Assembly (NCBI RefSeq): GCF_988242995.1
Contig: NZ_OZ547043.1
Reading direction: 5' to 3' (one strand)
DNA: 64,000 nt
Of the stretch, positions 38,630 to 38,887 are shown piece after piece. Every line of letters begins with the position of its first letter. Position 1 is the first letter of the stretch. The notes below the pieces were generated by a model, which saw only the letters and a program-made list of their open reading frames with translations, did no database searches and was not told the DNA's origin. A program made the translations under genes and the position numbers.

Positions 38630-38887
38630 TTAACGCGGAGAAACCCCGTAATGTGCAATGCAGCGCCAGACACCATCCTGCTGGCAATAAATTGACTCAG
38701 TCAGCCCAGGGATCACCCATTGTATTTCCTCGCCGGGGGGACAGGTCAGCCAAATGCATAACCCGCAGCCGCCGCGTAAATCACGGGGAATATCGCTGAC
38801 GCGAAAAGTCATGCCCGCTGCCTGCAACGCTTTGCGGGTTTGTATGACGCCGACCGTGGAGTGAAATAAAAATAAAAACTCTTTCAT
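38630..38887 (-). CDS. small DUF3343-like protein, translationally coupled to yjiL
   Basis: 85-aa ORF whose ATG overlaps the yjiL stop (ATGA); contains [15 protein letters not shown], resembling the conserved PxPRxxSxSCGxA core of DUF3343. Confidence 0.5.

Follow-up and report, generated by a model that had tools for sequence, protein, structure and literature searches.

We describe here the small gene ytiA, found on the minus strand of a 64,000-nucleotide stretch of contig NZ_OZ547043.1 (RefSeq assembly GCF_988242995.1; this whole stretch is referred to below as the window), and show that it stands at the end of a three-gene unit, yjiM-yjiL-ytiA. Its product belongs to the DUF3343 family of putative selenium/sulfur (Se/S) carriers, and is encoded together with an ATP-dependent activase (YjiL) and a protein best described from its sequence as a double-cubane [8Fe-9S] reductase homologue (YjiM). 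The unit is present in the genetically tractable E. coli, and the same three families occur in anaerobes beside selD, yedF and a gene for a selenocysteine-lyase-like desulfurase. The E. coli cassette and this recurrence beside selenium genes together suggest a testable idea, namely that the reductase participates in S/Se trafficking with YtiA as its carrier. In our estimation the chances are evenly balanced that YtiA carries a S or Se species on its conserved Cys41 and exchanges it with YjiM, which YjiL would charge with low-potential electrons at the expense of ATP.

The ytiA gene and its junction with yjiL

The features of ytiA in the window are as follows:

38630-38887, minus strand: ytiA coding sequence, 85 amino acids, DUF3343 / PF11823 Se_S_carrier, with ATG start and TAA stop (open reading frame list, Pfam and RefSeq)
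38884-38887, minus strand: ATGA overlap of the yjiL TGA stop (38886-38884) and the ytiA ATG (38887-38885), read from the sequence
38895-38899, minus strand: GAGGA element, putatively acting as a Shine-Dalgarno sequence, within the 3' end of yjiL and 7 nt 5' of the ytiA ATG
38756-38794, minus strand: codons of the conserved loop motif, residues 32-44 (Cys41 codon 38765-38767; Cys44 codon 38756-38758)

A preliminary description of the window had pointed out the 85-amino-acid open reading frame (ORF) and its ATGA overlap on the yjiL stop, both of which are read directly from the sequence, and had supposed that the ORF might be unannotated in reference genomes. The latter proved incorrect. The counterpart in K-12 MG1655 (NC_000913.3) is ytiA (b4715, YP_009518833.1, “uncharacterized protein YtiA”), with which the DNA in the window is identical. 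RefSeq lists the product as WP_000657675.1, and the gene is annotated in every RefSeq E. coli genome sampled. Of 5426 complete E. coli genomes, 5385 gave a match to positions 38400-39100 in a megablast search, the features under the match bearing names such as “ytiA: DUF3343 domain-containing protein” or “putative Se/S carrier protein”. As a gene ytiA is already known by name, b-number and family; its annotation is ordinary, and we do not present it as a discovery. Our search of the literature for E. coli ytiA or b4715 turned up only the unrelated ribosomal protein YtiA of B. subtilis.

That the ytiA start codon overlaps the yjiL stop makes it probable that ytiA is translated by coupling to yjiL. 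A scan for promoters and terminators returned sites no more numerous than in shuffled sequence and no terminator after ytiA, and so does not mark the limits of the operon.

YtiA is a conserved member of the DUF3343 family

The resemblance to small DUF3343 proteins that had been noted by eye was borne out by a profile search, in which YtiA matched Pfam PF11823 (DUF3343, now “Se_S_carrier”) with an E value of 4.4e-13 and 48.9 bits (gathering cut-off 25) over profile positions 2-57 of 69. At 85 amino acids YtiA has the size of the stand-alone members of the family (~80-100 amino acids), its orthologues ranging from 78 to 101. Among 37 diverse DUF3343 proteins invariance is restricted to F8, P34 and C41, with G42 kept in at least 90%. 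Cys41, within P-R-x-L-x-x-x-C-G, is the single conserved cysteine remarked upon by Lin et al. (2015); a Ser or Ala frequently takes the place of Cys44. The residues invariant in 17 enterobacterial orthologues are L7, F8 and H9, then D32, I33, P34 and R35, followed by L37 and R38, and finally G40, C41, G42, L43 and C44; residues 32-44 hold the CG-x-C motif preceded by IPRDLRGG that had also been picked out from the sequence.

Comparison of E. coli lineages indicates that ytiA is under purifying selection, with a ratio of nonsynonymous to synonymous substitution rates (dN/dS) of ~0.15 for the whole gene. The domain core (residues 1-50) gave 0.07 and the tail 0.20, and the value for the neighbouring end of yjiL is similar at 0.23, all of these figures resting on small counts. 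The C-terminal third of YtiA is variable and fast-evolving. A length of 85 amino acids proves little by itself, because the ORF list contains dozens of chance ORFs of about that size in the same region; ytiA stands out from these because of its PF11823 match, its low dN/dS and the retention of its frame and junction in other genera (see below).

DUF3343 was proposed by Lin et al. (2015) to be a Se/S chaperone with one conserved Cys, and the S/Se binding or transfer expressed in the family name is likewise a proposal made from genomic context (PMC5322559). YtiA resembles the “putative Se/S carrier” that these authors described beside YedF and a selenocysteine lyase in its Pfam family, its size (80-100 amino acids) and its single family-wide Cys in a P-R-x-L-S-S-x-C-G region, as well as in its linkage to activase and HGD-D-type genes, which appear in their STRING table for Slackia. 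It differs in that E. coli ytiA has no YedF, desulfurase or SelD gene alongside, and in that YtiA possesses a second Cys (CGLC), invariant in Enterobacteria, and a fast-evolving C-terminal tail.

YtiA is predicted to adopt a generic ferredoxin-like fold (β-α-β-loop-β-α-β-β). An AlphaFold2 model built on a 37-sequence alignment (predicted local distance difference test, pLDDT, 92; predicted template modelling score, pTM, 0.83) consists of β1 (2-8), α1 (11-23), β2 (28-32), an irregular segment (33-42), β3 (43-49), a short α2 (53-57), β4 (63-70) and β5 (73-79). Cys41 is the penultimate residue of the predicted β2-β3 loop (33-42), and Cys44 lies inside β3. In its top structural matches the predicted fold resembles PII, CutA and the C-terminal domain of UreE, the conserved cysteine falling in the model where PII proteins have their T-loop; no significant sequence or structure match of YtiA to PII signal proteins, which with CutA make up the ferredoxin-fold trimers considered, was found. 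PDB searches with the YtiA sequence and with the family profile yielded nothing meaningful and no solved DUF3343 structure.

The relays formed by TusA, YeeD and YedF serve us as a working analogy, as these are small single-cysteine carriers encoded beside YedE/YeeE transporters, desulfurases and SelD, and one DUF3343 gene in our set follows a PF04143 transporter gene in the same manner. YtiA nevertheless differs from TusA in the position of its cysteine: TusA carries it in a CPxP motif at the N-terminus of a helix, YtiA in the β2-β3 loop. A TusA domain (PF01206) with its CPxP cysteine motif is absent from YtiA, there being no TusA match in Pfam and no TusA-like fold among the top structural matches.

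YjiM is better described as a double-cubane reductase homologue than as a dehydratase

The two partner genes of ytiA are the following:

38884-39651, minus strand: yjiL, ATP-dependent electron-transferring activase/reductase (BcrAD_BadFG; TIGR00241); RefSeq coordinates, the longest ORF would start at 39657
39661-40812, minus strand: yjiM, putative double-cubane [8Fe-9S] cluster reductase homologue with the HGD-D fold (NF040772 and 6ENO match)

YjiL had been recognized from its sequence as a BadF/BcrAD-type ATPase, an assignment upheld by its matches to PF01869 (BcrAD_BadFG, E 1.1e-76) and TIGR00241 (363.6 bits). As to the parallel suggestion that YjiM is 2-hydroxyacyl-CoA-dehydratase-like, the protein has the HGD-D fold and is better described as a double-cubane [8Fe-9S] reductase homologue than as a plain dehydratase. 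It scores 531.3 bits against the NCBIfam equivalog NF040772 (“double-cubane-cluster-containing anaerobic reductase”, cut-off 350), while the models for the dehydratase and for benzoyl-CoA reductase give it scores far under their cut-offs (95 versus 700; 76 versus 454), and it matches the solved double-cubane cluster protein (DCCP) structure of Carboxydothermus hydrogenoformans (6ENO) with E 5.7e-75. An alignment of 39 sequences, C. hydrogenoformans-type proteins among them, shows eight cysteines of YjiM (C40, C59, C78, C93, C108, C273, C302 and C335) to be invariant. Leaving aside C93 their spacing is X18, X18, X29, X164, X28 and X32, which does not match the published seven-cysteine [8Fe-9S] pattern literally. 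A word-indexed homologue search with YjiM gave, among the matches listed, enterobacterial proteins only (86-99% identity).

Among the closest described counterparts is the DCCP/DCCP-R system of C. hydrogenoformans (6ENO, 7YYL; PMC7317905, PMC9351452), which is likewise a two-gene unit in which DCCP, with conserved cysteines that align, is matched by YjiM, and DCCP-R corresponds to YjiL. As in that system the activase gene is adjacent, yjiL being located 9 nt downstream of yjiM. Jeoung et al. name YjiM as the type of the “class II” double-cubane proteins, a short form that lacks the N-terminal channel-closing helices of DCCP. A further difference is that the described system has two components, whereas E. 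coli adds a third, small cysteine protein. The activator systems HgdC-HgdAB and BcrAD share the ATPase family (BcrAD_BadFG) and the HGD-D fold with YjiL and YjiM; they differ in that a DUF3343 partner for them is found neither in the available portion of Jeoung et al. (2020) nor in the loci we examined.

The sole reported phenotype that we found for the locus concerns the uptake of proline-rich antimicrobial peptides, in which the yjiL-mdtM cluster plays an accessory part, and a preprint reports increased YjiM abundance under antibiotic exposure; neither study addresses YtiA.

The cassette is retained in Gammaproteobacteria with differing flanks

The preliminary description had grouped the three genes as a module, and their distribution supports this within the Gammaproteobacteria. 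Genes for HGD-D, BcrAD_BadFG and DUF3343 proteins occur in the same order, with differing flanks, in Klebsiella pneumoniae, Yokenella regensburgei and two metagenomic proteobacterial contigs (L095 and L097). Conservation drops steeply along the operon from YjiM through YjiL to YtiA, identity to the E. coli proteins being 87, 85 and 55% in Klebsiella, 81, 64 and 37% in L095, and 73, 58 and 36% in L097; the small proteins of the two contigs are thus only 36-37% identical to YtiA. The reading frame of ytiA is kept in these genera, and an overlap or tight junction with yjiL is present in all of them: the junction reads ATGA in Klebsiella (L003) and L095 and TAGTG in Yokenella, and L097 has an 18-nt spacer with AAGAGGA.

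In E. coli O157:H7 (L091, NZ_CP038423.1, 1-2711) and in O145 a type III secretion system effector island (espX6) replaces yjiK and the sequence beyond. The edge of the island lies within the last ~16 codons of ytiA (corresponding to ~38630-38676 of the window) and gives an 88-amino-acid protein with a new C-terminal tail (WP_000657677.1), so that ytiA is retained in O157:H7 despite the loss of yjiK.

DUF3343 genes accompany a subset of double-cubane loci in Firmicutes

For a census of double-cubane loci one genome per species was scanned with an alignment of YjiM and 6ENO, and 80 loci (L011-L090) from Firmicutes, Deltaproteobacteria, Actinobacteria, Chloroflexi and archaea were kept; this set is centred on the reductase and, instead of a random sample, comprises the loci that best match the protein of C. 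hydrogenoformans. A profile built from the 37 diverse DUF3343 proteins was then run against six-frame ORFs of the loci within 10 kb of the reductase. A DUF3343 ORF was found in 13 of the 80 loci, always on the strand of the reductase gene and downstream of it, and five such ORFs checked against Pfam gave E values of 1e-19 to 1e-24. In nine loci (Tepidibacter, Clostridium ihumii, a Tissierellia metagenome-assembled genome (MAG), Claveliimonas, Eubacterium sp. ER2, Faecalicatena, two Dorea and a Bacillota MAG) the DUF3343 gene directly follows the reductase gene, and in eight of these it stands between the reductase and activase genes, the exception being C. ihumii, which has no activase gene within 10 kb. 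The Firmicutes order (reductase-DUF3343-activase-reductase) is unlike that of E. coli and yet the linkage is kept, which makes it stronger evidence of a functional tie than gene order alone.

Seven loci (L059, L062, L068, L069, L076, L041 and L089, at ~7000-13400 in each) possess a second, YjiM-like reductase of 380-383 amino acids (383 in five Lachnospiraceae-type loci). The three of these short paralogues that were measured are 52-57% identical to E. coli YjiM, a value unusually high across phyla that may point to horizontal transfer, and the three checked against NF040772, among them the shorter Tissierellia copy, match it as well. All seven loci with a short paralogue contain DUF3343 and one activase, while DUF3343 is found in 6 of the 73 loci without one (Fisher p = 5e-7). 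Five of the seven are not independent, as they belong to related genomes of Lachnospiraceae type (Dorea, Claveliimonas, Faecalicatena and Eubacterium sp. ER2). DUF3343 is accordingly not a regular third component of the double-cubane system (13/80); it is a feature of a subset, made up of the seven short-paralogue loci and the Enterobacteria, and not of the double-cubane family as described.

Two further observations concern these loci. The gut Firmicutes carry two double-cubane paralogues, one of ~425 amino acids that is C. hydrogenoformans-like and one of 380-383, beside one activase and one DUF3343 gene. Moreover, the DUF3343 proteins of reductase loci in Firmicutes carry two adjacent cysteines (K/V-C-C-G) at the site of the conserved one, and six of them (L076, L059, L062, L068, L069 and L089), which leaves out Tepidibacter, C. 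ihumii and the Tissierellia MAG, also end in a conserved R-D-R/K/V-Y-C, the Lachnospiraceae-type copies having R-D-R/K-Y-C. The C-terminal Cys hints at a second thiol of the kind seen in some relay proteins.

Double-cubane and DUF3343 genes cluster with sulfur and selenium genes

In a Poribacteria locus (L030) the gene order is selD, reductase, activase, TIGR01977 desulfurase, YedF and DUF3343. The desulfurase scores 513 bits against TIGR01977 and 406 bits against the model of the selenocysteine lyase SclA, and the YedF protein belongs to TIGR03527 (“selenium metabolism protein”). A Desulfosporosinus locus (L022) holds the same gene set with an additional IscA/HesB gene after DUF3343, and in the Dorea and Claveliimonas loci (Lachnospiraceae) a TIGR01977 desulfurase gene lies directly upstream of the reductase-DUF3343-activase genes. 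Among the 80 loci, neighbours within 10 kb of the reductase were counted by phmmer scores against verified queries, giving selD in 11, a SclA-like desulfurase in 9, a YedF-like protein in 17 (an approximate figure because of this scoring) and DUF3343 in 13, with at least one of these in 30.

These neighbourhoods agree with two earlier reports. Lin et al. list an activase and an HGD subunit among the DUF3343 partners of Slackia, and found no Se-specific DUF3343 subfamily (PMC5322559). Haft observed that 955 of 970 NF040772 proteins are from SelD-encoding genomes and raised the possibility of a 2(4Fe-4S)-Se cluster, without mention of DUF3343 (bioRxiv 10.1101/2022.07.06.499078). A functional association between DUF3343 and double-cubane proteins is at most hinted at in this literature, and in our search we found no paper stating the link explicitly. 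The 30 loci are instances of physical clustering with selenium genes, which goes beyond the genome-level SelD co-occurrence reported by Haft.

DUF3343 genes distant from double-cubane loci have neighbours that encode a TusA+DsrE (YedF-like) protein, YqeC, an Aminotran_5 together with a TusA protein and, directly upstream, a YedE/YeeE-type transporter; on a short contig, one follows a gene for a pseudouridine synthase. In the transporter case (L099, 3926-5252) 5 nt separate the gene of the YedE/YeeE-family (PF04143) protein from the start of the DUF3343 gene (P0150, 27% identity to YtiA), and a second PF04143 gene is nearby. The TusA-like YeeD of E. coli holds this same position, after yeeE.

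Certain loci of the census have other companions. Two short double-cubane reductases adjoin the SaoT and SaoE genes of the 'selenocysteine-assisted organometallic' locus (NF040730, NF040736), in L083 (13168-14567) and L049, both without DUF3343; the order in L083 is selD, two reductases, activase, SaoT and SaoE. Downstream of the Claveliimonas reductase cluster (L059, 13454-18815) is another group of sulfur/redox genes, whose products are a rhodanese-domain protein, with a signal peptide predicted from its N-terminus, an HdrD-like CCG/4Fe-4S protein and a radical S-adenosylmethionine (SAM)/DUF3641 protein.

A proposed role for YtiA and its alternatives

In the role that we propose, Cys41 of YtiA would be loaded with S or Se as a persulfide, perselenide or selenotrisulfide, the YjiL ATPase would inject low-potential electrons into YjiM, and YtiA would hand its S/Se species to YjiM, whose open active site would reduce it in an ATP-driven reaction, or alternatively YtiA might remove the reduced product, e.g. 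towards SelD. The E. coli operon could then be seen as a stripped-down form of the clusters of anaerobes that combine selD, a SclA-like desulfurase, yedF, DUF3343, a double-cubane reductase and an activase. We infer the carrier chemistry, its direction and the identity of the element (S versus Se) from family and gene context. If the proposal is true it would link two open questions, the substrate of double-cubane proteins and the role of DUF3343, and offer one simple genetic system for both.

Several points weigh against this role. As 67 of the 80 double-cubane loci have no DUF3343 within 10 kb, the reductase has no general need of a DUF3343 protein encoded nearby, and conversely DUF3343 is also found without the reductase. 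Genes for a desulfurase, YedF or SelD are absent beside the E. coli locus, and no selenocysteine (in-frame TGA) version of the conserved cysteine occurred in the loci examined. An ATP-boosted low-potential reductase is not obviously needed for the reduction of a persulfide or perselenide. Contact of YtiA with YjiM or YjiL we likewise infer; in an AlphaFold2 model of a YjiM-(GGGGS)x7-YtiA fusion (10 paired rows) both parts fold (pLDDT 85.7), while the interface is not readable from the output. Our literature search found no experiment on YtiA or on any other DUF3343 protein.

A more specific form of the idea, which we consider tentative and on balance unlikely, is that YjiM-YjiL-YtiA constitutes an ATP-driven selenium-mobilising reductase, in which Se would be held on Cys41 and carrier-bound or refractory Se reduced to selenide for SelD. 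Were it true, it would provide the first physiological role for double-cubane proteins and would explain their near-exclusive occurrence in SelD-encoding genomes.

Less probable again is that YtiA acts in cofactor maturation, with no role in turnover, by delivering the extra sulfide or selenide bridge through which two [4Fe-4S] cubanes would become the [8Fe-9S] cluster of YjiM. A single conserved cysteine is typical of sulfur relays, YtiA is co-produced with YjiL and YjiM, and the idea would suit both the desulfurase gene directly upstream of the reductase genes in Lachnospiraceae and the IscA/HesB gene after DUF3343 in Desulfosporosinus, as well as the Se-containing double cluster envisaged by Haft. 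A dedicated maturation factor is harder to reconcile with the many reductase loci that lack a nearby DUF3343 gene (67/80), and with DUF3343 genes that accompany YedE-type transporters, YqeC and YedF where there is no reductase.

We judge it slightly more doubtful still that YtiA is a general S/Se carrier whose clients are elsewhere (SelD, tRNA thiolation or selenation, or molybdenum-hydroxylase maturation), its linkage to yjiL reflecting shared regulation and not a common reaction. The varied neighbours of DUF3343 genes and the lack of a Se-specific subfamily in the survey of Lin et al. fit such a carrier, but the cassette stays intact in several lineages with changing flanks, the start/stop overlap is also kept, and the linkage is retained in Firmicutes despite another gene order.

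To a slightly lower rank we assign a redox or regulatory subunit, either a small Fe-S or thiol-disulfide electron donor to YjiL (CGLC being like the CGFS of monothiol glutaredoxins) or a PII-like regulator of the ATPase. A low-potential electron donor is a requirement of activases, as established with the HgdC-type proteins. The C-x-x-C of YtiA is invariant in Enterobacteria, and the predicted fold resembles PII, CutA and the C-terminal domain of UreE; of these features the second cysteine is variable in the wider family, as described above.

Finally, that ytiA is a chance frame or a decaying remnant without function is effectively refuted: the region does contain many spurious ORFs of about its length, and its C-terminal third is variable and replaced in O157:H7, but against this stand the Pfam match, the dN/dS of 0.15, a motif that is invariant across genera, a confidently predicted fold and the presence of the gene in 99% of E. 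coli genomes.

Flanking sequence and minor observations

Each of four long proteins (P0154, P0184, P0185 and P0231; 407-2562 amino acids) gives short matches to the YtiA profile at 4-6 separate places, which may represent repeats or low-complexity sequence.

On its other side ytiA is followed by yjiK, from which it is separated as follows:

38566-38629, minus strand: spacer of 64 nt from the ytiA stop to the annotated GTG start of yjiK (38565), without a terminator-like hairpin

Read as its longest ORF (323 amino acids, from 38676), yjiK would begin within ytiA and share 47 nt with its 3' end; we rejected this start in favour of the annotated GTG at 38565. Because the spacer shows no terminator-like hairpin, yjiK may be co-transcribed with ytiA.
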